Positions 1 to 19,305 of a stretch of DNA of 64,000 nt are shown here, piece after piece. The position numbers were made by a program, and so were the translations under genes. The first letter of the stretch is position 1. Each line of letters begins with the position of its first letter. Source of the DNA: a virus; the IMG/VR virus record IMGVR_UViG_3300047457_001149, positions 1 through 64,000 of that record, one strand, 5' to 3'. The notes under the pieces are model-generated. The model saw only the letters and a list, made by a program, of their open reading frames with translations, ran no database searches and had not been told where the DNA came from.

Positions 1-1164
1 AACCTTGGCCTTCCGCACAACGCTCCTCACCGACTTGCGCCCGAGGGACTCCAGCGCGTCCTTCGCGTCGTCCTTCACCTTTTGAAGCGCGCGCCGCGTC
101 TTCATGCCCTTCGTCTGCGTCCCGGTCGCGTCGCGAATGTCCTCCCCGATTTGAACCAGCTTGCCACGAACCTTGCTCTTGCCCTTCTCGTAGATGTCTT
201 CGGCAAGATCCCGCACCGCACCAGCGGCCTTCTCCTCGTGCTCCGGCTCGTGCCCTGCCTCGTCCTCCAGCGCCTCTTGGATCGCCTCGACGAGATGCGG
301 GTCCGGACCCTCCTCGCCTCCGGCCTCCACCACTTCGTCGAGGTGGTGGTCGAGCTCCTCGGCGGTCTTGGTGTTGCCGATGAGATCGGCCATCACCTGA
401 AGACCAGTCTGCCCGCTGTCCGCCAGAACGGCAGACGCCAGCACCGTCTTGCCTGTGATGGGAGCCCCGCGGTTGGCGAGCCCGCTCATGAACATGAGCG
501 CGGTGCCGACCTTCTCCCCAGCCTCCGCCTGCATCGCTTGAAGCTGCGCGATCTCTTCCGGCGTGAGCTCCGCGTCCTCAGCCGCGAGCTCCTCGGCAGC
601 CGCCATCTTGTCGAGGTTGGTCAGGCTGTTCATGATGGCGGGGCCCTGCGGAGCCATCGGGTGCGCCATCTGCCGGCCGATCACGCCGCCCTCGGGCATG
701 TCGGTATTGCCCATGCCCACGAGGTACTGGAGCGACGAGCGGTTGGCCTGATCGAGCCGTGCGATCGCGTTGGTCGCGGCGGCGCTCTCGGGCGTGTTGA
801 TGCCGGTGCCGTTCAGCGACGCCTCTTCGGCGGCCTTGTCCATGTAGAAGAGCGCGGCGTTGAGCGCCCGGTCCGACAGCGCGATGTTCGCGGCCGCCAC
901 CTTGGAGAGGGCCCGCGTGTCGCCGTCCGGAACGATGCCGTGAGCCTGCGCCACCTTGGCGGACCCGAGCAGCGATCGGCCGATCGCAATGTAGGCGTCG
1001 TTCGGGAGGTGCTCGTCGATGATGTCCGGCAGCCCGAGGTCTGCGGCCACCTTGTCGAAGATACCCGTAGCGAAGTCGTCGTTCGCAAAGGGCGGCATGG
1101 CGCCTCCGTCTGAAAGGCCGTCGGAGATGCCCTTCAAAAGAGAGCGGGTGAACAGCGTGGTCAT
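1..1164 (-). CDS. Putative head-associated/internal virion protein rich in K-x-A motifs (partial, runs off window start)
   Basis: Not in ORF track; translated by hand. ATG at 1164 with AGGAG 8 nt upstream; reads MTTLFTRSLLKGISDG..., open to position 1; acidic, with DKVAA, AKVAQ, SKVAA, DKAAE, DKMAA, TKTAE, EKAAG. Confidence 0.75.
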   Translation of the reverse strand, partial: MTTLFTRSLLKGISDGLSDGGAMPPFANDDFATGIFDKVAADLGLPDIIDEHLPNDAYIAIGRSLLGSAKVAQAHGIVPDGDTRALSKVAAANIALSDRALNAALFYMDKAAEEASLNGTGINTPESAAATNAIARLDQANRSSLQYLVGMGNTDMPEGGVIGRQMAHPMAPQGPAIMNSLTNLDKMAAAEELAAEDAELTPEEIAQLQAMQAEAGEKVGTALMFMSGLANRGAPITGKTVLASAVLADSGQTGLQVMADLIGNTKTAEELDHHLDEVVEAGGEEGPDPHLVEAIQEALEDEAGHEPEHEEKAAGAVRDLAEDIYEKGKSKVRGKLVQIGEDIRDATGTQTKGMKTRRALQKVKDDAKDALESLGRKSVRSVVRKAKV

Positions 1165-1195
1165 TCGATTTTCTCCTGATCCTGGTGGAAGTAGT

Positions 1196-1690
1196 TTAGT
1201 CCGTCGTTGCCCGAGCTTTGACAGGCTCGCTCAATAGTTCCATCCCGACGTCTCCCAGCCGCCCCACGAAAGGCGAAGCGACAAGGCCCACCCCTCCACG
1301 AAGAAGGGCGGCGGGCCGTTCTTCCTCTGACGCCGAGAGCACATTAGCGCCCAAGAACGCGGCCGGGAGCCCGATGGAGACAACCTTTTGAAGAATTCCG
1401 GGACCGATGTACGCCCCTTTTAAGTAGTTGCCGAGTGCTTTCGGGACGCTCTTGGTCTTCTTGTACTGAGCTTGCAGAGCTTCAAAGAGCGACACGGGGC
1501 TGCCAAGGTGCATGTCTCGGAAAAAGTCACCAATCCCCAAACCAGCGCCTACAGCCTTGTTGTAGGCGCCGGGCGCCGTCGGAGTGTGCGCGCGATCTCT
1601 AAAAAGGTCTTGGAGCCCATACCTTCGAAAGGTTCGGCTCATCGCGGCGATCTTTACGCCGTCAAGTCGCTCTTCAAACCTAGAACGCAC
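1196..1690 (-). CDS. Hypothetical protein with glycine-rich hydrophobic segments
   Basis: 164-aa ORF overlapping the end of the RNAP subunit gene; VKIAA near the N-terminus; GAGLGIG and GGVGLV segments. Confidence 0.65.
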   Translation of the reverse strand: MRSRFEERLDGVKIAAMSRTFRRYGLQDLFRDRAHTPTAPGAYNKAVGAGLGIGDFFRDMHLGSPVSLFEALQAQYKKTKSVPKALGNYLKGAYIGPGILQKVVSIGLPAAFLGANVLSASEEERPAALLRGGVGLVASPFVGRLGDVGMELLSEPVKARATTD

Positions 1691-3479
1691 CGGCCGCTCC
1701 GTGGTGTAGCTCTGCGCCGTAAGCGTAGGCAGGCACCGGATGCGTACCGTGGAGGTCGCTGACCTCGCCGAACTGCGCCGCTTCCTGCAGCGTGTTCTTC
1801 AGGTAGCGGTGGGCGAGGCGCGCCATCCAGTCACTTTCCAGGAGGGGGTTCATGGTGAACGGCTTCATCACGAACTCTACCTGAGGAATGCGCTTGTTGA
1901 TAGCGACGTCGTGCACGCCTTGCTCTTTCAGGCTCTTAGCTAGCGCCGGGGTGATCGGTGTGCCTACCGTGTGGTGTAGCACCTCTTGGCCCAGGCGGTG
2001 CCCGACGGCGTTGTCGACAGACACGCGGGTGGCGTCCTTGTGGTACGCGTCTCGAAAGGCGTTGTAGTTGATGATGTCGCCCTTGAGAAGCTCGGGGTGA
2101 TCTGGGTCGGCTTCGAGCAGGCGCACGTGGTTGATCTCGGACTTCGCCAAGAGTTCGACGTGCCGCCGGTCCAGGTTGACGCCCTCGCCCTTGTAAAGGT
2201 TGTGGACCGCGTCGACGAAGTAGGCCCGCCCCGCGCCCAGACCTTTGGCGGCGACGACCTTCGCCGGGTGCGGGACGCCGTCTGTCATGGCGTCGCCGAC
2301 CTCGACCCCTTGCCCGACCGTGACCTTCACGTTGAGATCCGGCGCGGCGTAGATCTTCTTCGTGTCGACGTGAATGTAGTGGCCGCCCTGCGGAGCTTTC
2401 TCGATCTTCTTCACAACGCCGGTGTTCGGAGCCAGCACCGCTTCGTACTTGAACGCCTTGGGGATGTCGAGGAGCTGACGGACTCCCTTCAGGCCCGTGA
2501 GCTCCTTCACCTCGCCCTTGACCGTAAGCGTTCCGTGGCGAGAGGACAGCGCCATCTGCGTGAGCGGCTCCGCCATCGCTTGCGCGGAGCGCACGCCGAC
2601 GGTCATGCCCATGGCGTGGAGGTGCCCCTTCTCATTGTGCCCCTGGCACATTTGGCAGACGCCTTTGGTCGCGGTGCAAGTCATCGGCGAGCGAACGAGG
2701 ATCTGAGGGACGTTCTTGGCCTTGAGCTGCTGGACGATCTGCGGCGTGATGGCGGTATTACGAGCGAGTCCGGCCGAGTCTTGCGAGAAGCGGTCGAGGA
2801 TGTGCGCGTCGTCGACGGACATCTTTACGCCGTTGTGCGTGCCGCAGTCGTGCGTCGTCACCACGTTGGCGATCATGTTGTTGACGAGCACCTTCGCCAT
2901 CTCGCCGGGCTCGGAGACCGAGATACGCGCGCGCACTTCGTTGTAGCGCACCTCTGGTCCGGACATCCAATACTGCGCGGGCGTGAGTCCTTCTGAATAA
3001 GAGCGATCGATGAGGTGCGGCATGATCCCTCGCTTCGGGTCGTCCGTCGCGAGCGGCGTGGCCACGATCTTCATGAGCTGCGCGGCATTACCGCGCGCGC
3101 CGGAGAGCGCCATGTGCGTCATGGACCCGGGGTGATTCTTCGTGAGCGAGAGCATCTCGTCCTGCGCGTCCGTGATCACCTTGTTGCGCGCTGTCCGGTC
3201 AGTGAGCTTCTCCAGCTTCGCCAGCGCCGGCTTCACGATCGCGTCCCGCATCTTGTAGTCGGGTTCGATGTCGTCCAGCCCGACCGAGATGCCTTCGAGG
3301 GTCGCGATCTCGTCTCCCCGTCGCTTGAGAGCGAGCGCGGTGTGGACGTACTTGGTGGGGTCTTTCCGGGCTAGCTCCACCACGTGGTCGTGCAACGCCT
3401 TTTTCGTGACAGGGCCCGAGATCTTGTATCCCTCGGGCATCACGTCGTTGATCAGGAATTGGCCGACGGTGGTGGGCAT
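1680..3479 (-). CDS. rpoC: Phage DNA-directed RNA polymerase beta-prime, C-terminal half
   Basis: Motifs TTVGQ, SGARG, SYSEGLT, DCGT, RSPMTC..GVCQMC (Zn site), AQAMAEPLTQMALSSRH (trigger loop) and RRHVELL match bacterial RpoC regions E-H. Confidence 0.93.
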   Translation of the reverse strand: MPTTVGQFLINDVMPEGYKISGPVTKKALHDHVVELARKDPTKYVHTALALKRRGDEIATLEGISVGLDDIEPDYKMRDAIVKPALAKLEKLTDRTARNKVITDAQDEMLSLTKNHPGSMTHMALSGARGNAAQLMKIVATPLATDDPKRGIMPHLIDRSYSEGLTPAQYWMSGPEVRYNEVRARISVSEPGEMAKVLVNNMIANVVTTHDCGTHNGVKMSVDDAHILDRFSQDSAGLARNTAITPQIVQQLKAKNVPQILVRSPMTCTATKGVCQMCQGHNEKGHLHAMGMTVGVRSAQAMAEPLTQMALSSRHGTLTVKGEVKELTGLKGVRQLLDIPKAFKYEAVLAPNTGVVKKIEKAPQGGHYIHVDTKKIYAAPDLNVKVTVGQGVEVGDAMTDGVPHPAKVVAAKGLGAGRAYFVDAVHNLYKGEGVNLDRRHVELLAKSEINHVRLLEADPDHPELLKGDIINYNAFRDAYHKDATRVSVDNAVGHRLGQEVLHHTVGTPITPALAKSLKEQGVHDVAINKRIPQVEFVMKPFTMNPLLESDWMARLAHRYLKNTLQEAAQFGEVSDLHGTHPVPAYAYGAELHHGAAGAF

Positions 3480-3482
3480 GGG

Positions 3483-3770
3483 TTAGTACCCGTAGGGCCG
3501 CTGGTTATTCATCAGCTTGTTGCCCAAGTACATCGCGCCAGCTCCGATAGCGGCGCCTTGCCCGGCTTCGCCCAGGTTCTTCCACCCTTTTGTGAAAGCT
3601 TTCCCGACATTTCCCTTGGCCATATGTTTCCCAAAACTCTGCACGCCCGAACCGACACCAGACGCGATGTTTCCAAAGACGTTGGCCTCCTTTTCGAGCC
3701 CGTACCGAGCCAACACCCTCCTCGCGCCAACTTCTTGTGCGATCTCCAGCGCCTGCTTCGTAATCATCAC
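3483..3770 (-). CDS. Small glycine-rich protein with KQA/KEA motifs
   Basis: 95 aa, GGAGGAG RBS, stop/start coupled; LEKEAN followed by Gly-rich helices (GAAIGAGAMYLG). Confidence 0.7.
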   Translation of the reverse strand: MMITKQALEIAQEVGARRVLARYGLEKEANVFGNIASGVGSGVQSFGKHMAKGNVGKAFTKGWKNLGEAGQGAAIGAGAMYLGNKLMNNQRPYGY

Positions 3771-4303
3771 ACTCCTCCGTACGACAGTCCGCGACTCAGT
3801 CCGTTTCGATCACCGGTCTCCATGGGCATGCCCATGTCCGCCCCAAACGTAGGATCGCCAGAGCGCATGCCCTTGGTCGGATCGTCCCCGTAGCCGAAGT
3901 TGCTTTGCGCCAGCACCTTCGCCACAGCCTCAATAGGTTCACCCTGTTCGTCAAGAAGGGCGTACTTTTTGAAGACGGCGTGGATTGCGGGGTTGGGTTT
4001 GCCCGTCGCTACATTGTGGTGCGCGACCTGTAGGGCGATCGGGGCTTGATACTTTTTAGCCGTCAAGGGTTTGGGCGGCTCTTCTCCCGCTGCGTACAAC
4101 ATGGACGCCAGCAGATAGTCTTTCCAGCTCGCGTCCTTCTCTAGCGTCTCAGGGTCCAACCCGAGCGCGGCCATAGCTCTCTTCTCGCCTGCGCGCTTAG
4201 CCGCTTGGTTGAACGCTTCGTTTACGCCGTGAAAGCGGTTCTGCGGGTCGCGAAAGAACCCCCGCTGATTGACCTTTAGCCGTTCGGTGACGCCTCTGGA
4301 CAT
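3767..4303 (-). CDS. Hypothetical protein (K-x-A motifs)
   Basis: 178 aa, translationally coupled on both sides; EKRAM, EKDAS. Confidence 0.7.
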   Translation of the reverse strand: MSRGVTERLKVNQRGFFRDPQNRFHGVNEAFNQAAKRAGEKRAMAALGLDPETLEKDASWKDYLLASMLYAAGEEPPKPLTAKKYQAPIALQVAHHNVATGKPNPAIHAVFKKYALLDEQGEPIEAVAKVLAQSNFGYGDDPTKGMRSGDPTFGADMGMPMETGDRNGLSRGLSYGGV

Positions 4304-4833
4304 TATCGATGACTCCGTAGGTACCGCTTCATGTCATCCGCGTGCGCCTGATCCATCTGCGCGCCCTCTTGCGCCATGCCGTTCAGGGGGACGTCGTCGT
4401 CAGTGGCGCGGAAGAGCTTTGACCAGAGGCAGATGGTCTCTTCCTCGACCCGGAGGATGTGGTTGAACACCTCCCGCGCGTCGTCGAGGTGTACGCATGG
4501 CACGTCGCAGTGCTCCGCCGAAGCGTCGCCGCCAAGGGCCGTGATCTTCTTGTTGAGCGCGTAGATGCTCTTGCGCTCTTCCTCGATGTGCTCTTGGAAG
4601 TGCTCGTACACGCCGTCTCGGAAGAACTCACGCAGCTGATCTCCGTACGAGATGTACATCAACATCAGCGTGTACTTCTTGCACAGGATTTCCTTGAGGA
4701 GCTCCATGTGATCGCAGCCACAGTCGTCGGCGGCGTCGGCGGCGTGAGACAGCTCGGGCGACTTCATCGTCACCCGCATGACCTTTACCCCGTGCATGGG
4801 GCCGCCGAGCATGTCATCGAGAAAGGGGAACAT
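4303..4833 (-). CDS. Ferritin/bacterioferritin-like four-helix-bundle protein
   Basis: YEHFQEHIEEE...KITALGG, LRVEEE and DQAHADD pattern typical of the ferritin-like fold. Confidence 0.7.
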   Translation of the reverse strand: MFPFLDDMLGGPMHGVKVMRVTMKSPELSHAADAADDCGCDHMELLKEILCKKYTLMLMYISYGDQLREFFRDGVYEHFQEHIEEERKSIYALNKKITALGGDASAEHCDVPCVHLDDAREVFNHILRVEEETICLWSKLFRATDDDVPLNGMAQEGAQMDQAHADDMKRYLRSHR

Positions 4834-7800
4834 GGGGGTCCTCTTCGTCCTCGTCTACGCCGGTCAAGTGCTCCGGCGGGAAATAGGATAGCGCCAACTC
4901 GGGGGAGGTACTAGAGAACGCCGCCGGGAGAGACTCGCCCAGGCTGTAATTGTCCGCCTCGGTGTCTTCGGCTTGCTTGGTGTTCTTGACCTCGATGGCG
5001 TCGGTCATTTTGAGCTCGCCGCGACGCCACGCCGCCAGCACGTCCTCCCGGTTCTTGAAGGTTTTCACGGGGCCCTTTGCGGCCGTGGCCTTTGACGCGT
5101 GGGTGAAGCCGATGATCGCCTCGTGCTGCGGGAAGGCTATGAGCTTGTTCCGCTGCTGGTCCGCCAGCAGGAGGTTGGTCATGGTCATGTTCTTCGCGTC
5201 GGTCACCGCGTCGGGGGTCACCGGCACGTGGACTTGCAGCGTGTCCCCGTCGTAGTCGAGGTTCATGCCGGTCTCGATGAACGGTGACACCCGCAGGGTC
5301 TTGCCCTTAACCGGCTTGGCGTAGGCCGCGATGATGCCCCAGCGGTGCAGGGTGGGCGCCCGATTGATCCAGACCGGACGTTCGCTGGTCTCCTCCAGCA
5401 TCGCTTGGTGCGCAGCCGGGTCCTTCTTCGTCACCATCTCGCGCGCCTGCAGCGCCGGGTAGCCCTTGCGGATCAGTCGGGCGACGATCAGCTTGTCGAG
5501 CATCTGCCAGAGCATCTGCTCAGGGATGCCGACCTGGTCCATGTTCAGGTTGGCGTCCGGCACGGCCGTCCCGCGCCCGGACACGTCCTGGGTGTGGCGC
5601 ATGAGCTTCCGCTGAAAGAAGCCGCCCTTCGGAGTCCCGACGCCCGCGACCGTAGCCAAGAAACCCTTGACCTTTTGCTGCTGCAGCTTCGCGTCCGCCG
5701 GCAAGGCTACGCCGTAAAGCTCCTCGACCTTGTTGTAGACGTCGAGGCGGTGCTTGCCGCGATCGGACTCCACGGCGGTGCGCTGCAGCGTGTCGCGCGA
5801 GTCCATGAGCTGCCCGTAGAGCTTGTTGGCGTCCGCCACCATCAGCTGCGAAGGGTCCTGCACGCCGGGGAGGATCGGGCGGAACACCGGCGGAATCACG
5901 GGGACCTTGCTGATGATGTACGCGTTCTCGGGGCGAAGATTGTTCTTCTTCAGCGCCTCCAGGTACTTGACTTGCTTCACGAGGTCGTTGAGCGCCGGAC
6001 CCTTGGCCGTGCGCATCTGATCTCGGAGCGTCTGGAGCTTCGAGTCCACGTTGATCTTCGAGAGCTCGCTCTTGAACCAAGCTCCGCCGTGATCGTGAAT
6101 CGCCTGCTCGTACTGCCGCTCGGTCATGTTGAGCAGGCGCCGCACCGGCTCCTTGAACACCGGGCTCGGGATCGGCTCGTGCAGATCGATGTGCGAGTAG
6201 AGCGTCCCCTGGTTGCCGCCGGTCTTCAGCGGGTCGAAGAGACCGCCCTTCTCGGGGCGCAGGTTCTTCGCCACGATGGTCTTGTTGTTCTCGATGCTGC
6301 CGGCGCTGCGCTTCATCACGTCGGCGTCGGTGAGCGGCAGGAGGGACATCTTCGAGCCGCGCCTGTCGACGCGGATGCCGGCGCCCTCCAGCATGGCGGT
6401 GAACTTGTTAAAGGCGAAGGACGGCTTCGGGTTCGGGAGCGGCATGCCGGTCTGGACGGCCTTCCAGAACTCGTCGTTCTTCTGCCCCTTCACCGTCGAC
6501 GCCTCACGGAGAAAGTTGCGGGCGTTGTGCGCGAGGAGCGCGTCGAACTCCATCTTGCCGATGCCCTTGGCTGAGTCGTCGCCGCCGGTCTTCATCGGCT
6601 GCTCATTGAGGTCGTACGGCCCGACGCCGTGCCCGGCGAAGTTCGTGTCGGTCGACTTGAAGAGCTTGTAGATGAACTGGCGCCCGACGAGGACGCCCTT
6701 GCCGTCGGCGCCGCTGATCTTGCGGTTGAGCACCGGGTCGAAGAGGTGCTCCTTGTCCTTCACCCCGTGCGTCTGCATGAGCTCGCGCGCCCACTTTACG
6801 GCGTTGTGCCCCGCCGCGTTGTCATAGACGATGGGCTTGCCGGTCTTCTCGGCGACCTTCGACACGGAGGTCTCGATGATCTGCGCCGGGTTGATGCGGC
6901 TGACAACACCGGCGGAGGTGAGCAGGAGATCCAGCGGGCGACCTTGCTCGTCGCGGAGCATCTCGTGGTCCGGAACGATCTTCGAGACCACGCCCTTGTT
7001 GCCGTAGCGACCGGCCAGCTTGTCGCCGATCTGCATCTGCTCGTGCGTCCGCACGAGGATGGTGATCTGCGAGTTTGTCCGAACGACGTCGATCACCTCG
7101 CCAGGGGCCCCGTGGTCCCAGGACAGCGCCACCTCCTTGTACGGCTTGGAGAGCGCTTTCGAGATCCGCCCCAACATGGCGTCTGTGCCCGCGATCGTCT
7201 GCTTGGTCAGCCCGAGCACTAGCGGCTCTTTGGCTGTGACCTTGGACCCCTTCTTGATGACGCCGTCATTGTCTAGCTTGCCGTACGCCTCCGGCGTGTA
7301 CTTCGTGCCGTAGTACATCCGGTGCTTCTCTTTGTTGAGCTCGATCTGCGAGGAGAGCGGATAGACCTCGCGATACATGTGCTCGCTGGTGAGCCGCTTC
7401 GAGCACGTCTCCGAAATGACGACGGCGTCGTTCGAGTTGAAGCCGTAGTAGGGCACGTAGCCGACGAGCAGGTTCTTCCCGAGCGCGAGCGTGCCGTTCT
7501 TGGTGTAGTTCGACTCAGCCAGTCGCTGGCCTTCCTTGACGGTGTCACCCGCCTTCACCTTGATGTCGTGGTGCAGGTAGGTCTTTGAGGGGAAGGGGAA
7601 GAACTGGTGGTAGGGGACTTTGACGAGGCCCTTGTCGTCGGCGGCGGCCGTCTTCTCGTTCTTGTGATGCGTGTCGATATGCTGCTGGAGGTGATTCCAG
7701 TCCTTGAAGAACCGCCGGTTTGCGAAGCGCACAGTCGGCGAACTGAATTCCTCAGTGTTGCGGTGGAACGCTTCGGCCTCTTCAGGCGAGTGCCCAACGA

Positions 7801-9784
7801 TGAACTTGACGTCGGTCGTTTTCCAAGGGGCTTTAAGATCCAGGTCGCCTTTCGCATTGACCCGCTTCTGCTTGTCGTAGGCGTAGATGAGGCCGTCGTG
7901 GCGAGTCCCCACGAAGAAGTCGAGCGAGTCGCCGTCGGGTCCGGTGTAGCCAGGGAGGTGGCCGTAGTCGGCGGGGGTCGGGTACTTGTTGCCGGGGACC
8001 AGGTAGTCCTTCTTGATCTCAATGTTGAACGTGAAGGGGCCGAGCTTCTTCTGCTCGATGACGGGACGATCTTCTGCCTTCTTCTCCGCGTGCGGCCGGA
8101 TGTAGACGTAGTCCTTGTCGATCTTCGCCACCGTCCCGCTCACCGGCGCCTTCGGCACGATCATGTGCCCGTACACCTGTTCGAACGAGTGCCCCTCCGG
8201 AAGATGCGAGCGCACCTGAACGAGCGGCGCCTCGCGGTCCAAGAGCGGCAGTGCCTGCGTCCCCATCTTCGATCCCATGATGGCGCGGTTGCCTTGGATC
8301 GAGTGGATGAAAGGGATCAGCGTCGTCGCAGGCGAGTAGATGTGCGACAGGTGGTTGAGCTGGTGGGTGACTTTGCTCGCGTCGACCTTCGCCTGCTCGC
8401 CGTTGTGAAAGACGTCCACCTTCCCGACCATCTGTTGGTGCGGGAACGCCACGGTCATGCGGCTTAGATCGCCAGACCGGATGTACTCATCCTTCCCGGT
8501 CTTCACGTTTCGCATCACCGTGTACAGGTTCCCCTTGTCGTCTCGGTGCGCCGCGAGCGTCGCGCGGATGTCGACGCCTGAGTGCGAGCTCTCGGGCGTG
8601 CGGATAGGGTCCAACGCCCCGAACTGGGTGTTGTGGATCATGCGCGCGTCGAGCGGGATGGCGCGGTCGCTTGGAATGCCGCCCTCCCCGAGGCTCGTCA
8701 CCTTGACCGAGTGATCGAGGATCTCCATCGGGTTGATGCCCGTAGGCACCGCCGACAGCGATGACACCGTCAAAAACTTTCGGATGGAGTCAGAGAACGG
8801 CGCCGGACGGAGGGCGTCGCGGATCACGCTCTTGCCGGTGAACGCCATCTTGGCCTTGGGGGACCACGCGCGCGCCGTCAGGCGAATCCGCTCCGCGATG
8901 AAGTCGTCCATCGCGTGAAAGGTCTTGAAAGTGAGCGAGTCGGTGTCGTCGGGGGCGGCTTCGCCCTTGTGCACCTGGACGATCTTCTTTGCGGCGGCGA
9001 GCAGCGCCTCTGGCGTCACCTTCTCGTGCGCGTGCCCGAGCGTCGCTTGCGTCACCTCTGGGTCAATCGTCGCGATGTCGTACCGCTTCTTGATCGCCTG
9101 GACCTTCTCCTCTTGCGTCGCTCCGGGCTTGATGAGCGCCGGGTGCTCCAACTTCGTGTAGAGCTTCGAGATCGTCGACTCGACCTGGTGTCCGTGTTCG
9201 CGGTGGTTGGCGTCGGCGAGCCCTTGCCCGAGGTGCTTGGCGATCTGCTCGTGGCTCGTCCCGATCCCGCGCAGTACGGCGTAAAGAGGGAGGTTGGACG
9301 TGCCGTACTGGAGGTGGAAGGTGCCCTTGGCGTCGTTGAAGACGACGTCGAAGTTCTTTCCTCGACCGAGGTTGAAGACGGTTTTTAGCTCGCCGTTGTC
9401 CGCGCGCTGGGTGTAGACGCCCGGCTTGCGCCGCAGCTGGTTGGCAACTTGGTACTCGTTGCCGTCGGAGATCATCGTGTGGCGCGACGTGAGGAAGGGG
9501 ATGTGCGCGAGCGTGAAGTTCTTCGCGGTGTCGATGACCTTACCGTCGGCGCCCTTGAGAACAAGCGTCCCTTTGACCGGCTCGTTGAGCGACGTGCCCT
9601 TCATGAGCGCGTTGTATTCGTCAGACGGCGTGAAGTCCTGGGCGTGCACCTTCACGTCTTGCAGCTCCAGCGTCCGTCCCTTGAGATCGAGCGGGAACGC
9701 GGCGGTGAGCGCTCCCACCGTCTTCGTGTGGAGCTTCGCTCGGAGCGTCGCGGCGTCCGTTAGTACGGGCGTGAGGTTCTGCAT
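4814..9784 (-). CDS. rpoB: Phage RNA polymerase beta subunit fused to N-terminal half of beta-prime, with inserted PPase-like domain
   Basis: RpoB motifs QLRRKPGVY, DPIRTPES, NRAIMGSKM, GFNSNDA, GDKLAGRYGNKGVVS, GKMEFDAL; then RpoC motifs PEKGGLFD, PVIPPVFRP, NRAPTLHR and catalytic NLDYDGD (~5243-5263). Confidence 0.95.
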   Translation of the reverse strand: MQNLTPVLTDAATLRAKLHTKTVGALTAAFPLDLKGRTLELQDVKVHAQDFTPSDEYNALMKGTSLNEPVKGTLVLKGADGKVIDTAKNFTLAHIPFLTSRHTMISDGNEYQVANQLRRKPGVYTQRADNGELKTVFNLGRGKNFDVVFNDAKGTFHLQYGTSNLPLYAVLRGIGTSHEQIAKHLGQGLADANHREHGHQVESTISKLYTKLEHPALIKPGATQEEKVQAIKKRYDIATIDPEVTQATLGHAHEKVTPEALLAAAKKIVQVHKGEAAPDDTDSLTFKTFHAMDDFIAERIRLTARAWSPKAKMAFTGKSVIRDALRPAPFSDSIRKFLTVSSLSAVPTGINPMEILDHSVKVTSLGEGGIPSDRAIPLDARMIHNTQFGALDPIRTPESSHSGVDIRATLAAHRDDKGNLYTVMRNVKTGKDEYIRSGDLSRMTVAFPHQQMVGKVDVFHNGEQAKVDASKVTHQLNHLSHIYSPATTLIPFIHSIQGNRAIMGSKMGTQALPLLDREAPLVQVRSHLPEGHSFEQVYGHMIVPKAPVSGTVAKIDKDYVYIRPHAEKKAEDRPVIEQKKLGPFTFNIEIKKDYLVPGNKYPTPADYGHLPGYTGPDGDSLDFFVGTRHDGLIYAYDKQKRVNAKGDLDLKAPWKTTDVKFIVGHSPEEAEAFHRNTEEFSSPTVRFANRRFFKDWNHLQQHIDTHHKNEKTAAADDKGLVKVPYHQFFPFPSKTYLHHDIKVKAGDTVKEGQRLAESNYTKNGTLALGKNLLVGYVPYYGFNSNDAVVISETCSKRLTSEHMYREVYPLSSQIELNKEKHRMYYGTKYTPEAYGKLDNDGVIKKGSKVTAKEPLVLGLTKQTIAGTDAMLGRISKALSKPYKEVALSWDHGAPGEVIDVVRTNSQITILVRTHEQMQIGDKLAGRYGNKGVVSKIVPDHEMLRDEQGRPLDLLLTSAGVVSRINPAQIIETSVSKVAEKTGKPIVYDNAAGHNAVKWARELMQTHGVKDKEHLFDPVLNRKISGADGKGVLVGRQFIYKLFKSTDTNFAGHGVGPYDLNEQPMKTGGDDSAKGIGKMEFDALLAHNARNFLREASTVKGQKNDEFWKAVQTGMPLPNPKPSFAFNKFTAMLEGAGIRVDRRGSKMSLLPLTDADVMKRSAGSIENNKTIVAKNLRPEKGGLFDPLKTGGNQGTLYSHIDLHEPIPSPVFKEPVRRLLNMTERQYEQAIHDHGGAWFKSELSKINVDSKLQTLRDQMRTAKGPALNDLVKQVKYLEALKKNNLRPENAYIISKVPVIPPVFRPILPGVQDPSQLMVADANKLYGQLMDSRDTLQRTAVESDRGKHRLDVYNKVEELYGVALPADAKLQQQKVKGFLATVAGVGTPKGGFFQRKLMRHTQDVSGRGTAVPDANLNMDQVGIPEQMLWQMLDKLIVARLIRKGYPALQAREMVTKKDPAAHQAMLEETSERPVWINRAPTLHRWGIIAAYAKPVKGKTLRVSPFIETGMNLDYDGDTLQVHVPVTPDAVTDAKNMTMTNLLLADQQRNKLIAFPQHEAIIGFTHASKATAAKGPVKTFKNREDVLAAWRRGELKMTDAIEVKNTKQAEDTEADNYSLGESLPAAFSSTSPELALSYFPPEHLTGVDEDEEDPHVPLSR

Positions 9785-9793
9785 CGCGTGCGA

Positions 9794-9820
9794 ATTTTAG
9801 CACACGATGAGGGTACAAGG
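9794..9820. promoter_or_regulatory. Back-to-back divergent promoters: TG-C-TAAAAT (minus, RNAP gene) and GGGTACAAGG (plus)
   Basis: Extended -10 TGCTAAAAT lies 9 nt upstream of the RNAP ATG; the plus motif resembles those at 27830 and 28333. Confidence 0.5.
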
Positions 9821-9857
9821 ACTTGATCTCGCAGCATGTCGCTGCGGATCAAGGAGA

Positions 9858-10088
9858 ATGAGAGATGTTTATCACGAGCCTGCTCCGCTTCGTCATCTAC
9901 GTGGGGGTCATCCTGTGACCCCCTGGGACGTGGTGGCGAGCGAGATGGCGGCCCACGCCGCCCTCCCCAAGGCGGAGAGGAGGCGTCGAAAGAAGGCGCC
10001 TCCTCCCCAGACCCAGCCTGAGCCCGAGGTCTCGGGCTGGGCAGAAGTCGACGAGGAGGTCATGGACCTCCTCGTGGACAGGAGATAG
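9858..10088 (+). CDS. Small hypothetical protein
   Basis: AAGGAGA directly before ATG 9858; basic RRRRKK stretch and acidic tail. Confidence 0.5.
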   Translation: MRDVYHEPAPLRHLRGGHPVTPWDVVASEMAAHAALPKAERRRRKKAPPPQTQPEPEVSGWAEVDEEVMDLLVDRR

Positions 10089-10108
10089 TTCGACCCCGAG
10101 GCGTGCCG

Positions 10109-10519
10109 CTACAACCGCGGCACGCCTCGGGGTCTCGCCTCCGCTTCGTTTGGTCCGTCTTCGGGCTCTTCCCAAGTGACCGCCGCGTACCGCTCGCCGC
10201 GCTCGTTGTTGAACTCGTCGTACGCCAGTCGAAACGCCTCGCCACGAGTGGCGTTGCGAAGCTTGTTCAGCAGCGTGACGTATTCGCGATGCCGCGTGTG
10301 CCGGCACGTGATGTCCGACTCGTCAGGCAGGACGATCTCTCCGTCTTCCACCAGCTTCTTACACCGGTGGCAGCCTTGCCATGGCCGGAAGATCAAGAAG
10401 GTGTCTTGCTGCACCTTCAGCTTCTTCTTGCGCCCCTCCGCCGGATCGGCAAACCCGGGACGGGGGCCGCGCATGCCCTCGGCGTTGGCTTCCAGCTGCT
10501 TCTCGTACCAGTCACTCAC
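10109..10519 (-). CDS. Hypothetical protein (CxxC...CxH)
   Basis: 136 aa, coupled to the putative portal gene by a GTGA overlap. Confidence 0.7.
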   Translation of the reverse strand: MSDWYEKQLEANAEGMRGPRPGFADPAEGRKKKLKVQQDTFLIFRPWQGCHRCKKLVEDGEIVLPDESDITCRHTRHREYVTLLNKLRNATRGEAFRLAYDEFNNERGERYAAVTWEEPEDGPNEAEARPRGVPRL

Positions 10520-12249
10520 TGCGGACCTCCGCCCATCGCCTGCGCCTTCATCTGCGCCATCTGGTCCTGCTGCATCTGCTCAACTCGCTGCACGACCACC
10601 GAGTACATCACGAAGTCTTCGCCCTTGAGCGAGTCCATGCGCGAGCGGCGCGAGCCCGGATCCATCTGCACCATCTGCTGCGCGATCTGGTCGGCCTGCG
10701 CGACGATCTGCTGCTGGTCATAAGCCATGCCGCCCTGGCTCTGCAGCGCCTGCTGCTGGGCCTGGTTCGACAGCGACTGCTGGAACTTCTGCATCGCGAT
10801 TTCGGTTTCTTTTTGCGCCCGAGCGTCAGAGAGCGTGTCTTCCTTTCGCCGGCGGCGCTCGTGATCGAGGTCGATGTTGAGCATGTCGGCGACGGTCGTG
10901 TTGCTGACGAGCTGCTGCTGCCAGAGCTGCATCTTCAGCTGCTTGTTGTCGATGTCGTCGATCATCTTGAAGTCCGCGAGCCGCATGTTGATCGGCTCCC
11001 AGTCCATGAACGCGGCGACCTTTCGCTCGATCCATTGGACCACCGCGTTCAAGTTCTCGATGTGCGTCTGCAGCTGGTTTTCAACCATGCGCAGCGTAAT
11101 CTCGCCGCGCGTCTGCCCGAGGCCCCCGGCGAGGAACTCCATGGGGACGCCCATGGAGAGCACGATGTTCTTCTCCGCCTCTTGCAGCTCGCCGAGCGTC
11201 AAGAGCGCCCGCCCGTTGCCGCCCATCTCTTGGACGTTGATCGGCACGGGAGAGAACTGGATGCGCAGAGGATCGCGGCGGAATAGCCGGATGTTGCGCT
11301 CCATCTCCTCGCGCCATCGGTCGAGAGGGATCGTCGAGATCGGGTCGCCCTGCCCGCTGGCGGCCGCCGGGTGGATGATCCGCATCGGCGTAATGTGTTC
11401 GAGCGCGATCGCCTCGTTCGCTTTACGCAGTACAGCGGTGAAGAGAAAGTTCTTGATCGCGCTCGTGATCGGCGGGAAGCCCCACTGCGATTGCACGCCG
11501 GCGGGGCCCGGCATCTTCATGTGGTAGAGCGACTCGTCGGCAAACCGAAAGGTCTTCTTTTCCTGCATCGCACGCAGGATTTCCATAGGCATGTGGTTGA
11601 TCAGCGTGCGGTTGCCGGCGCGCACCTTGGCGATGTCATCACGCGGGATCTGGTAGTAGTAGACCGACTCGCCCGTGACGCGATTGTGCTCAATGTCGAT
11701 CAGCTTCGGGTCCCAGCGGATCAGCTTGATCTTGTTGGCCTTCTTCAGCTTGTAGTCCTCGACGCGCGAGGTCACGTCCTTCCGGCGGCATTGCCGACAG
11801 TTGTGCGTGAACGAGCACTTCGCGAGGTTGAACTTGTAGTCAGCGGCGGCGACGTCTTCCTTTGTCCCGCAGAAGGGGCATGTCAGCTCCCGCTTGATCG
11901 GCTCGTACACCGAGATGAACGCGTTGCCGTAGAGCCAGACGTCGTAGCTCACCTGAGTCAAGAAGCCCTTCAGGCGGATCGACTCCTCGAAGAGCTTCTT
12001 GTGCCTCGTCTTCTCTTCGTCCGACGTCGACTCGTAGATGAACCGAGTGATCGGGTATTCGCCGAACTTCCGCACGACGCCGTAGATGTGCGCGGAGTGG
12101 AACCCGAGATACTCGGCCCACTTGAACAGGTCCTTCAGCTTTCGCGGAACGAACCCCGTCAAGTAGTCGAACATGGGGTTGGCGTGCGATGCTCCGCGCG
12201 CTCCCATCATGTCGAGAGGGGTCATTCCGTCCGGTCCGTAAGTCGTCAT
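10516..12249 (-). CDS. Putative portal protein with Zn-ribbon insertion
   Basis: ~577 aa; portal-like pattern (VWLYGNAF, LYHMK...WGFPPI, IVLSMGVPMEFL); CPFC/CRQC insert; Gln/Met-rich tail; GGAG RBS before ATG 12249. Confidence 0.65.
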   Translation of the reverse strand: MTTYGPDGMTPLDMMGARGASHANPMFDYLTGFVPRKLKDLFKWAEYLGFHSAHIYGVVRKFGEYPITRFIYESTSDEEKTRHKKLFEESIRLKGFLTQVSYDVWLYGNAFISVYEPIKRELTCPFCGTKEDVAAADYKFNLAKCSFTHNCRQCRRKDVTSRVEDYKLKKANKIKLIRWDPKLIDIEHNRVTGESVYYYQIPRDDIAKVRAGNRTLINHMPMEILRAMQEKKTFRFADESLYHMKMPGPAGVQSQWGFPPITSAIKNFLFTAVLRKANEAIALEHITPMRIIHPAAASGQGDPISTIPLDRWREEMERNIRLFRRDPLRIQFSPVPINVQEMGGNGRALLTLGELQEAEKNIVLSMGVPMEFLAGGLGQTRGEITLRMVENQLQTHIENLNAVVQWIERKVAAFMDWEPINMRLADFKMIDDIDNKQLKMQLWQQQLVSNTTVADMLNIDLDHERRRRKEDTLSDARAQKETEIAMQKFQQSLSNQAQQQALQSQGGMAYDQQQIVAQADQIAQQMVQMDPGSRRSRMDSLKGEDFVMYSVVVQRVEQMQQDQMAQMKAQAMGGGPQ

Positions 12250-12279
12250 CGTCACTCCGAGATGAGAGAGGAGAGCCGC

Positions 12280-17300: not shown

Positions 17301-18125
17301 TCAGCTGAAGATGTCTGCGAGGCCGTCGATCTCTTCTTGAGATAGATGGTCTCGCAGACGCTTCAGTCCCCGGTCGCGCACGTCCCCGACGCGCGCCGGC
17401 GTCATCTGGGAGCCGTCGATCTCGTAGAGGAGCTGGCCCACCTCTTCGACGCTCTTCGGCTCTCCTCCTCGCAGCCCGAACAAGTAGATCAGCACCAAGC
17501 GCTCGACGCGGCTCAGGTTCGCCTGGGCCAGCAGGCTGAGCCCGTCGATCGATTTGGTGATGGTCTCTCGTTCAATATCGATGGCGTCGTCAGGGATGAC
17601 GAGGCCGTCGATCGAAGATATGACCGGCTCCTCAAAGCCCTGAATAGCTTCGCCGGCTGCTTGCCGCCGCTCGTTCTCGACCCGACTCTTCCGCATCTCT
17701 TTGCGGGTGTGACTAGGGACGTGAACTACGCGAACTTTGTAGAGGCACTCTTGCATCCTGACGTTGATCCAGTTGCTGGCGTAAGTCAGAAAGCGGTTGC
17801 CGCGCTCAGGCTCAAAGAGCGTGATCGCGTGCATCAGCCCTTCGTAGCCGGCGGAGATCAAGTCAGAGAAGAGCCAGTCGCCGTGCGACTTTCTCCGCGC
17901 TTGTCGAATGACGAACCGGAGGTAACCGCACGCGATGCGTTGAGCAAGAACTTTGTACTCTTCCTTAGCGGCTTCGCGCGTCACGACGTTTGTCGATAGC
18001 TCGGACCGCGTGCGCGCAGCGCGGTACGCCGTAAACATCGACAGCTCTTCCGCTGACGAGGGGAGCGAATACTCTCCAACCTCGCGAAAGTGAACATCTA
18101 GTAGTTCGTTGCCGCTTTTGGTCAT
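17301..18125 (-). CDS. Sigma-70 family RNA polymerase sigma factor
   Basis: Region 2 DLISAGYEGLMHAITLFEPERGNRFLTYASNWI; region 4 LFGL...SVEEVG...RGLKRLR; likely start MTKSGNEL at 18125. Confidence 0.88.
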   Translation of the reverse strand: MTKSGNELLDVHFREVGEYSLPSSAEELSMFTAYRAARTRSELSTNVVTREAAKEEYKVLAQRIACGYLRFVIRQARRKSHGDWLFSDLISAGYEGLMHAITLFEPERGNRFLTYASNWINVRMQECLYKVRVVHVPSHTRKEMRKSRVENERRQAAGEAIQGFEEPVISSIDGLVIPDDAIDIERETITKSIDGLSLLAQANLSRVERLVLIYLFGLRGGEPKSVEEVGQLLYEIDGSQMTPARVGDVRDRGLKRLRDHLSQEEIDGLADIFS

Positions 18126-18136
18126 CTTGTAGAACC

Positions 18137-18166
18137 TTGACCCTGTTTGCCGCAGCATGGTACAAC
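18137..18166 (+). promoter_or_regulatory. Sigma-70-like promoter TTGACC-18-TACAAC with extended TG
   Basis: In the divergent intergenic gap, upstream of the 18193 gene. Confidence 0.55.
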
Positions 18167-18192
18167 TGTTCGTCCGAAGGCAAGGAAGACAC

Positions 18193-19305
18193 ATGAGCAA
18201 AAAGCAGAACAAGCAGACCGAGCAGGCCACCACCAACACCCCCACCACGACCGAGGCAGAACCCATGACGACCGAGATCGTTTCTCCCGCCACTGACGCG
18301 CTCGACGTTCCCGTCAGCGCGCTCACCAAGAAGTACTCCGAGGCGCTGCCGGAGTGGCAGCAGTATCTGGAACAGGTCGCTCCGCCCTCGGTGGGCGAGG
18401 TAGACCGCGCCATCAGCGGGCTCGCTGAGCCGAAGCGCAAGGCGTTCCTCAGCGCGCTCGCGCGCATGAACCCCGTGAAGCTCGGCCAGCACACCAGCCG
18501 GCGCGAGTTCTCGCTGCCGGACATCCGCATCTATCACGGCACCGGCAACGACGAGATGCGCCCGGCTGACTGCCCCACCGGCGGCATCTACGGCACGGAC
18601 GGCCGCCTCCTCGCGGCGCCGAAGGCGGCGCTGGCGAATCTGAAGCACAACCCGAAGCACGCCGGGCTCGGGACTGCCATCTCCGGCTTCGTCATCGGCA
18701 TGCACGAGGCGGGCACCTTCTGGCCGCCGCGCACGGGCACGCTGCCGGCGGGCGTCGAGGTTCGTACGAACGTCCCCATCTGCCGCACGCTCGACCGCAA
18801 GCGCGGCGACTACTTCGGCAGCTGCGAGGCCTGCGTCTACCGTCCCTTCAAGGACGGCAAGTCCAACAAGGACGCCTGCCGGAACGAGGACCACGCCTAC
18901 TTCGTCCTCGCAGACTTCTCTGGCGTCTACCGCATCGTCTTCTCCGGCACGTCCATCAAGCCCGGCTCGGCGGCCATCAAGAAGAAGAGCCGCCCGTGGG
19001 AGGCCTACTTCTCGCACGCCTTCGACCTCGACGCGCGCGAGCGTACGGAGAACTCGAACCGCTGGTTCGAGCTCACCGCTGACGTCTCGACCGACGCGCC
19101 CGAGCCGAGCGAGGCCGAGCTCGTGCTCCTCAACGCGCTCACGCGGCAGATCGACTACGAGATCTTCTTCCCCCGCGTCTACTCGATCTACACCTCGCCC
19201 CCCAAGGCGACGGTGTCGCAGGGATCCGTGTCCGACATGGACAGCCTCCTCAGCGCCGTCGGCGGGGCGGACGTGAAGAAGGACGTCAGCAACAAGAACC
19301 TGTAG
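18193..19305 (+). CDS. Hypothetical replication protein, possibly Zn-binding ssDNA-binding protein
   Basis: AAGGAAG RBS, strong codon bias; CRTLD..CEAC..C cluster; sits among replication genes and is followed by a strong hairpin. Function is inferred only. Confidence 0.5.
   Translation: MSKKQNKQTEQATTNTPTTTEAEPMTTEIVSPATDALDVPVSALTKKYSEALPEWQQYLEQVAPPSVGEVDRAISGLAEPKRKAFLSALARMNPVKLGQHTSRREFSLPDIRIYHGTGNDEMRPADCPTGGIYGTDGRLLAAPKAALANLKHNPKHAGLGTAISGFVIGMHEAGTFWPPRTGTLPAGVEVRTNVPICRTLDRKRGDYFGSCEACVYRPFKDGKSNKDACRNEDHAYFVLADFSGVYRIVFSGTSIKPGSAAIKKKSRPWEAYFSHAFDLDARERTENSNRWFELTADVSTDAPEPSEAELVLLNALTRQIDYEIFFPRVYSIYTSPPKATVSQGSVSDMDSLLSAVGGADVKKDVSNKNL

Follow-up and report, generated by a model that had tools for sequence, protein, structure and literature searches.

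A phage-encoded, bacterial-type RNA polymerase core in two chains, with beta fused to the N-terminal half of beta'

Assembly of the bacterial RNA polymerase (RNAP) is taught as an ordered pathway, in which alpha2 forms first, then alpha2-beta, then alpha2-beta-beta'. In Helicobacter and Wolbachia, the whole of beta is joined head-to-tail to the whole of beta', within a cellular enzyme that works with alpha and omega. Among phages, the phiKZ/AR9-type RNAPs are divided into four to five pieces, beta being split as well, lack a sigma factor and occur as two paralogous sets per genome (PMC7598289, PMC7824862), and in the mReC phages beta and beta' are different open reading frames (ORFs) of 900-1560 amino acids (aa), as given in the accessible part of Supplementary Data 2 (PMC7481178). 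In this report, we analyze the RNAP genes of an uncultured freshwater phage, carried on the first 64 kb (hereafter 'the window', 64,000 nucleotides) of a 90,357-bp viral contig of IMG/VR (IMGVR_UViG_3300047457_001149). A preliminary examination of the letters alone, referred to below as the sequence-only reading, had proposed that in this virus beta is fused to the N-half of beta' and that the C-half of beta' is a separate protein. Our analysis shows that the window encodes the two-chain catalytic core of a bacterial-type multisubunit RNAP.

The first chain is the product of a 1656-aa gene at 4814..9784 (this and all following coordinates are on the minus strand unless stated otherwise). In phmmer searches of PDB, residues ~62-1166 of chain 1 match bacterial beta (best E 6e-68) and residues ~1213-1614 match beta' positions ~151-570 (E ~1e-36), and Pfam recognizes Rpb2_2, Rpb2_3 and Rpb2_6 together with Rpb1_1 and Rpb1_2 in this chain alone. 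The beta (RpoB) part, residues 1 to ~1142 (6359..9784), contains the beta double-psi barrel (GNKGV, residue 928). The beta' N-half, residues ~1150-1600 (4985..6336, delimited by alignments to beta' 151-571), contains the clamp helices, well aligned where sigma region 2 docks, and the catalytic double-psi barrel with the Mg-binding motif NLDYDGD at residues 1508-1514 (5243..5263), the counterpart of bacterial NADFDGD, in which all three Asp are kept. The junction itself covers residues ~1143-1150 (6337..6358). Here, the last beta motif, PSFAFNKF...GIRVDRRG when compared to E. coli and Salmonella beta, is directly followed by the beta' N-terminal motif DVMKRSAGSIENNKT...RPEKGGLFDP, of which the stretch LLPLTDADVMKRSAGSIENNKT...RPEKGGLF aligns to beta' D18-F57; the C-terminus of beta therefore meets approximately residue 18 of E. 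coli beta', with no extra linker. Of the features that mark the multisubunit RNAP superfamily, both double-psi beta-barrels as well as the beta' Asp triad are thus present (Pfam Rpb2_6 and Rpb1_2; NLDYDGD; PDB matches at E 1e-68 and 1e-37). The beta' N-terminal zinc finger is missing, a segment of ~31 residues with its four Cys being deleted between GLF and SHIDL, and a single Cys remains in the 1656 residues of chain 1 (residue 794).

The second chain, a 599-aa ORF at 1680..3479, begins with MPTTVGQ and aligns from its residue 2 to S. aureus beta' residue 598 onward (E 7e-37). Pfam detects Rpb1_4 and Rpb1_5, and the alignments place in this chain the funnel, the bridge helix, the trigger loop with its catalytic His, the four Cys of the second Zn site and the clamp's C-terminal portion; the bridge helix and trigger loop expected of the superfamily are therefore found, the former strongly diverged. 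Exactly three ORFs separate the two genes (4303-4833, 3767-4303 and 3483-3770). The architecture is as the sequence-only reading had described it: RpoB motifs run without a stop into RpoC motifs, at a junction it had put at 6340-6380, chain 1 ends soon after NLDYDGD and PQHEAIIG (the latter at residue 1552 of 1656), the remainder restarts at MPTTVGQ three genes downstream, and both double-psi barrels reside in one chain, with bridge helix and trigger loop in the other, according to both Pfam and the alignments.

The window being a single metagenomic contig from an uncultured virus, the fusion and the split could in principle be an assembly or sequencing artefact, or the mark of a decaying pseudogene. 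Against this, three independent runs, each of a different study, hold contigs that cross the junction with 0 gaps (run X3, 5853-6825; X4, 5871-6409; X7, 5787-7646), and the indels listed over 1500-10000 all either have lengths divisible by three or are compensated. At least half of the junction's sampled 31-mers (share 0.70 to 1.00) are present in 16 public runs, two of which may be the window's own source, and the 20 runs holding any of them come from 16 studies of freshwater, lake, estuary and soil. Moreover, homologues down to 56% identity keep both boundaries, isolated phages share the layout, and peptides cover 100% of gp206, the corresponding fusion protein in Salmonella phage Arash (PMC10585845). 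The sequence-only reading had named a sequencing artefact as one way in which it could fail; the independent gap-free contigs and the 120 homologues with the same ends described below rule this out, and we regard the probability of an artefact or pseudogene as negligible. One further observation concerns expression. A freshwater metatranscriptome run (X19) holds two 151-nucleotide (nt) contigs, 6191-6341 and 6430-6580, that flank the junction with 0-2 mismatches; they are a weak hint at transcription in nature, too little to claim it, and DNA carry-over is possible.

How widespread is this layout? A search with chain 1 residues 1000-1656 yielded 980 proteins at E <= 1e-10. Among the best 120 of these, which are 56-99% identical to the query, all 120 combine beta and beta' Pfam domains, and the C-terminus of each corresponds to residues ~1599-1656. 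They are between 1457 and 2682 aa long, the variation being due to inserts, which fall at four hot spots (near residues 399, 570-711, 924 and 1514). The catalytic motif reads NLDYDGD in 90 of them, NLDFDGD in 11, NADYDGD in 10 and another single variant in 2; an intact N.D.DGD motif was not found in 7 of the 120. Examination of 20 IMG/VR loci found with the protein of the beta' C-half (beta'C) showed the same order in 19, namely a portal homologue, a small gene, the fusion, variable genes and beta'C, and 19 of the 20 encode beta'C by a gene of its own, ~600 aa long. The layout also exists in cultured phages: Arash (OQ632216) encodes gp206 (1525 aa) and gp216 (606 aa) as the same two chains, and Vibrio phages D69, D148 and D181 have them directly after the portal gene, at 29-36% identity between the window chains and the Arash/D69-type chains. 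The features that mark the Arash-like clade are found in the window, namely an ORF of beta plus the beta' N-half (beta'N) ending at the break, a separate beta'C of ~600 aa, and the gene order. Within a very large clade of phages this layout is the rule, and the window copy is a typical member of it. Our literature searches for a description of the fused-and-split layout found none, and the Arash paper names the proteins simply beta and beta', with fusion and split unmentioned (PMC10585845). The combination had been called unusual in the sequence-only reading, with the proviso that it would be less novel if already described for a characterised phage clade. The first judgement stands as far as print is concerned and falls for nature, since the layout is standard throughout this clade, published isolates included; the proviso applies in part, the isolates being published phages whose layout no searchable text describes. 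In short, the layout is present in published genomes, yet hardly described in print.

To reconstruct its history, we examined the relatives of chain 2. A profile-free exhaustive search with beta'C was performed, and its 150 best cluster representatives (clusters at 50% identity) were classified by domain content. Proteins with beta'C only make up 128 of the 150; in 22, a single protein, typically of 2000-2090 aa, comprises beta, beta'N and beta'C (some are fragments). Three representatives lack beta but have both beta'N and beta'C, and are likely to be fragments. In one locus (L026, IMGVR_UViG_3300037634_006620), a single one-chain ORF of 2043 aa stands behind the portal homologue. The distance from beta to beta'N (11-15 residues between the ends of high-scoring segment pairs) is equal in query and subject for Arash, D69, L026 and the one-chain forms, and this constancy in every form argues for one ancestral fusion. 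At the other boundary, the one-chain forms run ...TD.I.VKN straight into.TT.G..L; at this very site, chain 1 of the window enters an acidic tail and chain 2 starts MPTTVGQ, and chain 1 of Arash and D69 stops at the same point, without a tail.

A maximum likelihood tree of the beta'C part (65 rows, 616 columns, LG+C20+F+G4, quick search), rooted on the RpoC of Salmonella, Acinetobacter and Staphylococcus and including 18 complete one-chain representatives, recovers a phage clade (support 100) in which the one-chain forms are a basal grade and the split forms are nested, as one clade of 41 rows (support 99) plus a clade of 3. As the bacterial outgroup is also unsplit and the one-chain forms branch first, the split appears to be the derived state: the tree indicates fusion first and split later, once or twice. 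The word re-partition used in the sequence-only reading is hence apt for the result, beta fused to beta'N with beta'C separate, and less so for the process, which would be a secondary split of an older one-chain fusion and not a fresh re-partition.

It is conceivable that the split was instead inherited from a cyanobacterial or plastid-type donor with rpoC1 and rpoC2. The break indeed falls at the gamma|beta' site, within ~10 residues of the cyanobacterial/plastid break: chain 1 residue 1605 corresponds to residue 563 of 624 of cyanobacterial gamma, and chain 2 residue ~10 to residue 1 of cyanobacterial beta'. Cyanobacterial chains are moreover among the best PDB matches. However, Thermus, actinobacterial and firmicute chains match equally well, and no trigger-loop insert comparable to that of the 1323-aa cyanobacterial beta' was seen in the 599-aa chain 2. 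In addition, our tree, built without cyanobacterial sequences, has the one-chain forms branching first in the phage clade and the split forms nested inside it, with no sign of common descent with rpoC1/rpoC2; beta, moreover, is fused and not separate. We therefore hold this origin to be very improbable.

Another explanation to consider is a working enzyme of one chain, its two halves being united after expression, either through a split intein or through RNA splicing that spans the three intervening genes. In its favor, members of this gene family often carry inteins and homing endonucleases, and one-chain relatives exist. The sequences speak otherwise: chain 2 opens with Met-Pro and its homology to beta' begins at residue 2, so that a C-intein would not fit; chain 1 of Arash stops right at the break and has no N-intein; and the intervening genes of Arash are mostly on the opposite strand. 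The homology of chain 2 from residue 2 and the end of Arash chain 1 at the break led us to reject a split intein or intron, and re-joining in any form seems to us scarcely credible.

The one-chain gene was probably cut by the insertion of foreign genes, and the family offers examples of how it is invaded. Inserts of ~350-470 aa with intein/LAGLIDADG domains occur in many homologues near residues 399, 924 (GNKGV) and 1514 (NLDYDGD), and many of the hot-spot inserts carry the intein or homing-endonuclease domains PF14528 and PF05204. The window copy is intein-free. In Vibrio phage D181 (locus L031, 3983-9497), a free-standing homing endonuclease gene cuts the fusion gene into two ORFs, which suggests how such splits arise. 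At the remaining hot spot, the window carries an insert of ~140 aa within beta, residues ~570-711 (7652..8077). Its Pfam match, to InPase, is weak; the AlphaFold2 (AF2) model has a pLDDT of 87.6, and the Foldseek matches shown in PDB are all family I inorganic pyrophosphatases (probability 0.96-1.0, TM-score 0.36-0.50). The DGDxxD and DxK motifs are kept, and PF18823 or PF00719 is found at this site in some homologues. On the basis of the weak Pfam match and the confident fold, we describe the insert as a predicted pyrophosphatase-like domain inside beta. Arash, D69 and many homologues are without it, and in another lake (run X7) a contig of ~98-99% identity lacks exactly 7647-8069; the insert therefore comes and goes between near-identical strains.

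Chain 1 ends with an acidic tail of ~56 aa (4817..4984; net charge ~ -11), the last 50 residues of which include 12 D/E and 1 K/R. The tail has no counterpart in the one-chain relatives, Arash or D69. It carries the motif ALSYFPPE..TG, a loose form of which, [AVLI]L.[LFYW][FYW]P[PAT][EGAS], is found in 41 of 121 family members, and it may be a docking or packaging peptide.

Two other parts of the enzyme depart from their bacterial counterparts. When aligned pairwise with Salmonella RpoB, rifampicin-pocket cluster I (residues 342-365, window ~8695-8760) is diverged: A, V, T, K and T stand where E. coli has Q513, F514, D516, R529 and S531, respectively, and H526 and L533 are kept. Such a pocket predicts that the phage enzyme would bind rifampicin poorly. 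Although few RNAP elements are normally as conserved as the bridge helix, that of chain 2 (residues ~165-205, window ~2870-2990; ...SGPEVRYNEVRARISVSEPGEMAKVLVNNM) has only a few residues in common with its Salmonella counterpart. The trigger loop is better kept than the bridge helix.

We then asked which other subunits accompany the two chains. PF01000 (alpha) and PF01192 (omega) gave no match at E<=1 in the 90-kb contig or in four complete relatives (Arash, D69 and two terminally repeated IMG/VR genomes, 172 and 187 kb in length), and PF01193, the second alpha family, gave none at E<=1 in Arash and D69, the two genomes searched with it; all 14 control genomes gave matches in the alpha and omega searches. 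An alpha dimer and omega as core subunits of the superfamily are thus not found in the searched records. The sequence-only reading had seen no alpha or omega gene in the window and had called for a search for rpoA in the rest of the genome, and both the 90-kb contig and the complete relatives bear it out. Each of the four complete relatives has a single RNAP set. A T7-type RNAP (PF00940) gave no match, but the controls gave none either. A sigma factor is encoded at 17301..18530, with a match to sigma-70 region 2 at 17754-17924, the only region that Pfam recognizes; it is homologous to ORFs of Arash and D69, the two relatives searched for sigma, both of which have sigma-70-type factors. The longest sigma ORF overlaps by 374 nt an ORF on the plus strand (18157-19305) with a third-position guanine-cytosine (GC) content of 0.92. 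Because the long ORF overlaps a plus strand ORF of such high third-position GC, the sigma gene probably starts near 18150, giving a product of ~280 aa.

Taken as a whole, these data are in our view likely to be explained by a sigma-dependent two-chain core that derives from a cut one-chain enzyme, is made late and is carried in the virion. The two chains are predicted from sequence to assemble into the core unaided; the covalent beta-beta' link would serve as the assembly platform in place of the alpha dimer, so that the core would do without an alpha or omega from the phage, and the phage's own sigma factor would direct initiation. Made late with the head proteins and packed in the virion, the enzyme would be delivered with the DNA to transcribe the early genes. 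The proposals of virion packing and of a role in early transcription follow from the position of the genes in the late head-gene block and from the dominance of both chains in the Arash virion proteome. In purified Arash virions, gp206 has the most spectra of any protein (3516), above the capsid protein, gp216 has 1210 spectra, and the sigma factor gp10 was also found; the Arash authors suggest a role in early transcription (PMC10585845).

The alternative is an ordinary core that needs the host alpha dimer, and perhaps omega, and that acts as a middle or late polymerase in the cell and outside the virion, the fusion and the split being neutral alterations of the genes that mean nothing for the mechanism. 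The beta-beta' fusions of Helicobacter and Wolbachia, as well as those engineered in E. coli, function with alpha. The phage sequence is clearly bacterial-type, and its C-terminal beta and beta' regions are retained. As for the virion, the Arash authors themselves caution that abundant infection-phase proteins may contaminate virion preparations, and so concede that carry-over is possible (PMC10585845). However, in all relatives the RNAP genes are on the same strand and tightly packed directly behind the portal gene, as is typical of virion proteins, gp206 exceeds even the capsid protein in Arash particles, where sigma is present too, and the enzyme is the sole RNAP in four complete genomes. 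We judge a host-alpha-dependent, non-virion enzyme to be unlikely, although clearly less so than the origins and artefacts discussed above.

Several points nevertheless weigh against the virion-borne, sigma-dependent two-chain enzyme that we favor. Detection in virions is known for the relative Arash alone (PMC10585845), the window phage being known from its genes, and for any member of the clade the subunit composition, the sigma dependence and the independence of host alpha are deduced from sequences. A very divergent alpha or omega could have been missed by a Pfam-level search, or host alpha could be used, and the window contig is only ~52% complete (CheckV), so that its own gene set is partial. 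The tree that orders fusion and split is a quick search of beta'C alone with three bacterial outgroups, and several of its backbone forks are <95. Finally, catalysis may be altered, given the unusually divergent bridge helix. A further-reading version of the same idea is possible, and we hold it only tentatively: a self-sufficient holoenzyme of two chains plus sigma, free of alpha and omega, that would be packed in the capsid and ejected with the DNA, start transcription independently of the host and, in some members, that of the window among them, carry a pyrophosphatase-like domain on board. An enzyme of this sort would probably be insensitive to rifampicin-type inhibition.

The RNAP genes belong to a co-directional row on the minus strand of the contig (GC ~63%), tightly packed and with several overlapping stop and start codons, in the order 579-aa, 136-aa and 1656-aa genes, three small genes, 599-aa and 164-aa genes. 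The 579-aa protein (10516..12255), upstream on the same strand, is a homologue of the Arash 'portal protein' gp204 (31.5% identity over residues 12-561); Pfam and PHROG scans gave no match for it. The small conserved gene between it and the RNAP genes (136 aa, 10109..10519) is present in 16 of the 20 loci. Of the three genes between the chains, the first is ferritin-like (176 aa, 4303..4833; Pfam Ferritin, E 1.4e-11), overlaps the end of the chain 1 gene by 20 nt and lies between the halves in 16 of 20 related loci, but is absent from Arash and D69; the second (178 aa, 3767..4303) has no family match and is partly conserved in related loci; the third (95 aa, 3483..3770) is Gly-rich and has no family match in Pfam and PHROG scans. 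The conserved 164-aa gene (1196..1690) shares 11 nt with the end of the chain 2 gene, and 14 of 20 loci have a relative of it behind beta'C. The 164-aa and 95-aa proteins are Gly-/Ala-rich and may be virion or RNAP-associated proteins. Pfam and PHROG scans of the small neighbor genes (the three unassigned genes of the row, the 136-aa gene and a 388-aa gene downstream) gave no match and no alpha- or omega-like candidate. A scan of 1-12600 for promoters and terminators gave 0 promoters and 13 terminator-like sites versus 11.8 expected, that is, nothing above chance. An SNF2-family helicase gene on the plus strand (12256-14328; PHROG 62, E 2e-96; Pfam SNF2-rel_dom and Helicase_C) is transcribed divergently from the portal-RNAP block, and Arash (gp198c) and D69 have homologues in the corresponding position. 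An SNF2 helicase that co-varies with the RNAP genes of phiKZ-type phages has been proposed to act in a RapA-like manner (PMC7824862).

A large group of plainly bacterial-type sequences in which no alpha or omega gene is found, beta is welded to beta' and beta' is cut at a permissive site constitutes a natural test of which assembly steps are dispensable. A compact two-gene RNAP would be useful for structural work and for synthetic biology, and the system is available in culturable Salmonella and Vibrio phages. If the enzyme is indeed carried in the virion, it would represent a third solution, beside those of N4 and phiKZ, to a host-independent start of transcription. The history of fusion followed by split would also illustrate how selfish elements reshape the gene architecture of an essential enzyme.

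How, then, does the locus compare to known systems? The mReC phages are likewise uncultured tailed phages with recognizable beta and beta' homologues. The filter used to select them admitted a beta' only if it had NADxDGD and a length of at least 800 aa, and in the text of that article 'fused' or 'fusion' is used for crAssphage only and the word 'split' is absent (Weinheimer & Aylward 2020, PMC7481178). The window clade differs in having mostly NLDYDGD, in an ORF that contains beta, and a beta'C of 599 aa in the window; separate ORFs of at least 800 aa with NADxDGD in beta' are not what we find, and with such a filter the window family would go unselected. The metagenome ids of six related IMG/VR contigs are not among the mReC RNAP rows in the accessible part of the supplementary data, one of them being in the major capsid protein (MCP) reference list. 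Given the unmatched ids in these rows and the different ORF lengths, we set aside identity with the mReC clade; the two are probably distinct, which is not proven.

The phiKZ/AR9-type enzymes resemble the window's in being phage-encoded multisubunit RNAPs without alpha, one version of which is packed in the virion, and in co-occurring with an SNF2 helicase (PMC7598289, PMC7824862). As the sequence-only reading had stated, they are split differently and are far more divergent (PMC7598289, PMC7824862): instead of beta and beta' each being cut, two sets and no sigma, the window clade has one set, an intact beta and a sigma factor. Cyanobacteria and plastids break beta' at about the same place, but their beta is separate and alpha and omega are present, and the phage split, in the tree without cyanobacterial sequences, arose inside the phage clade. 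Severinov and colleagues are said to have reported in 1996, in J Biol Chem, that a split of E. coli beta' at that site is tolerated. With Helicobacter and Wolbachia the window shares the head-to-tail joint; it differs in that beta' is cut again and that alpha and omega genes were not found. The one-chain phage RNAPs have the same junction and linker length, belong to the same clade and have the portal gene upstream, but their beta' is unsplit, and they are 30-37% identical to the window. The closest are Arash and Vibrio phages D69, D148 and D181, with the same layout, junction, break and post-portal position, a sigma factor and a nearby SNF2-type helicase; they are without the pyrophosphatase-like insert and the acidic tail of the window, and their intervening genes vary in number (9 in Arash, 2 in D69) and orientation. 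Placed among these systems, the layout is a variant of the bacterial-type RNAP that is real, well conserved and mechanistically interesting.

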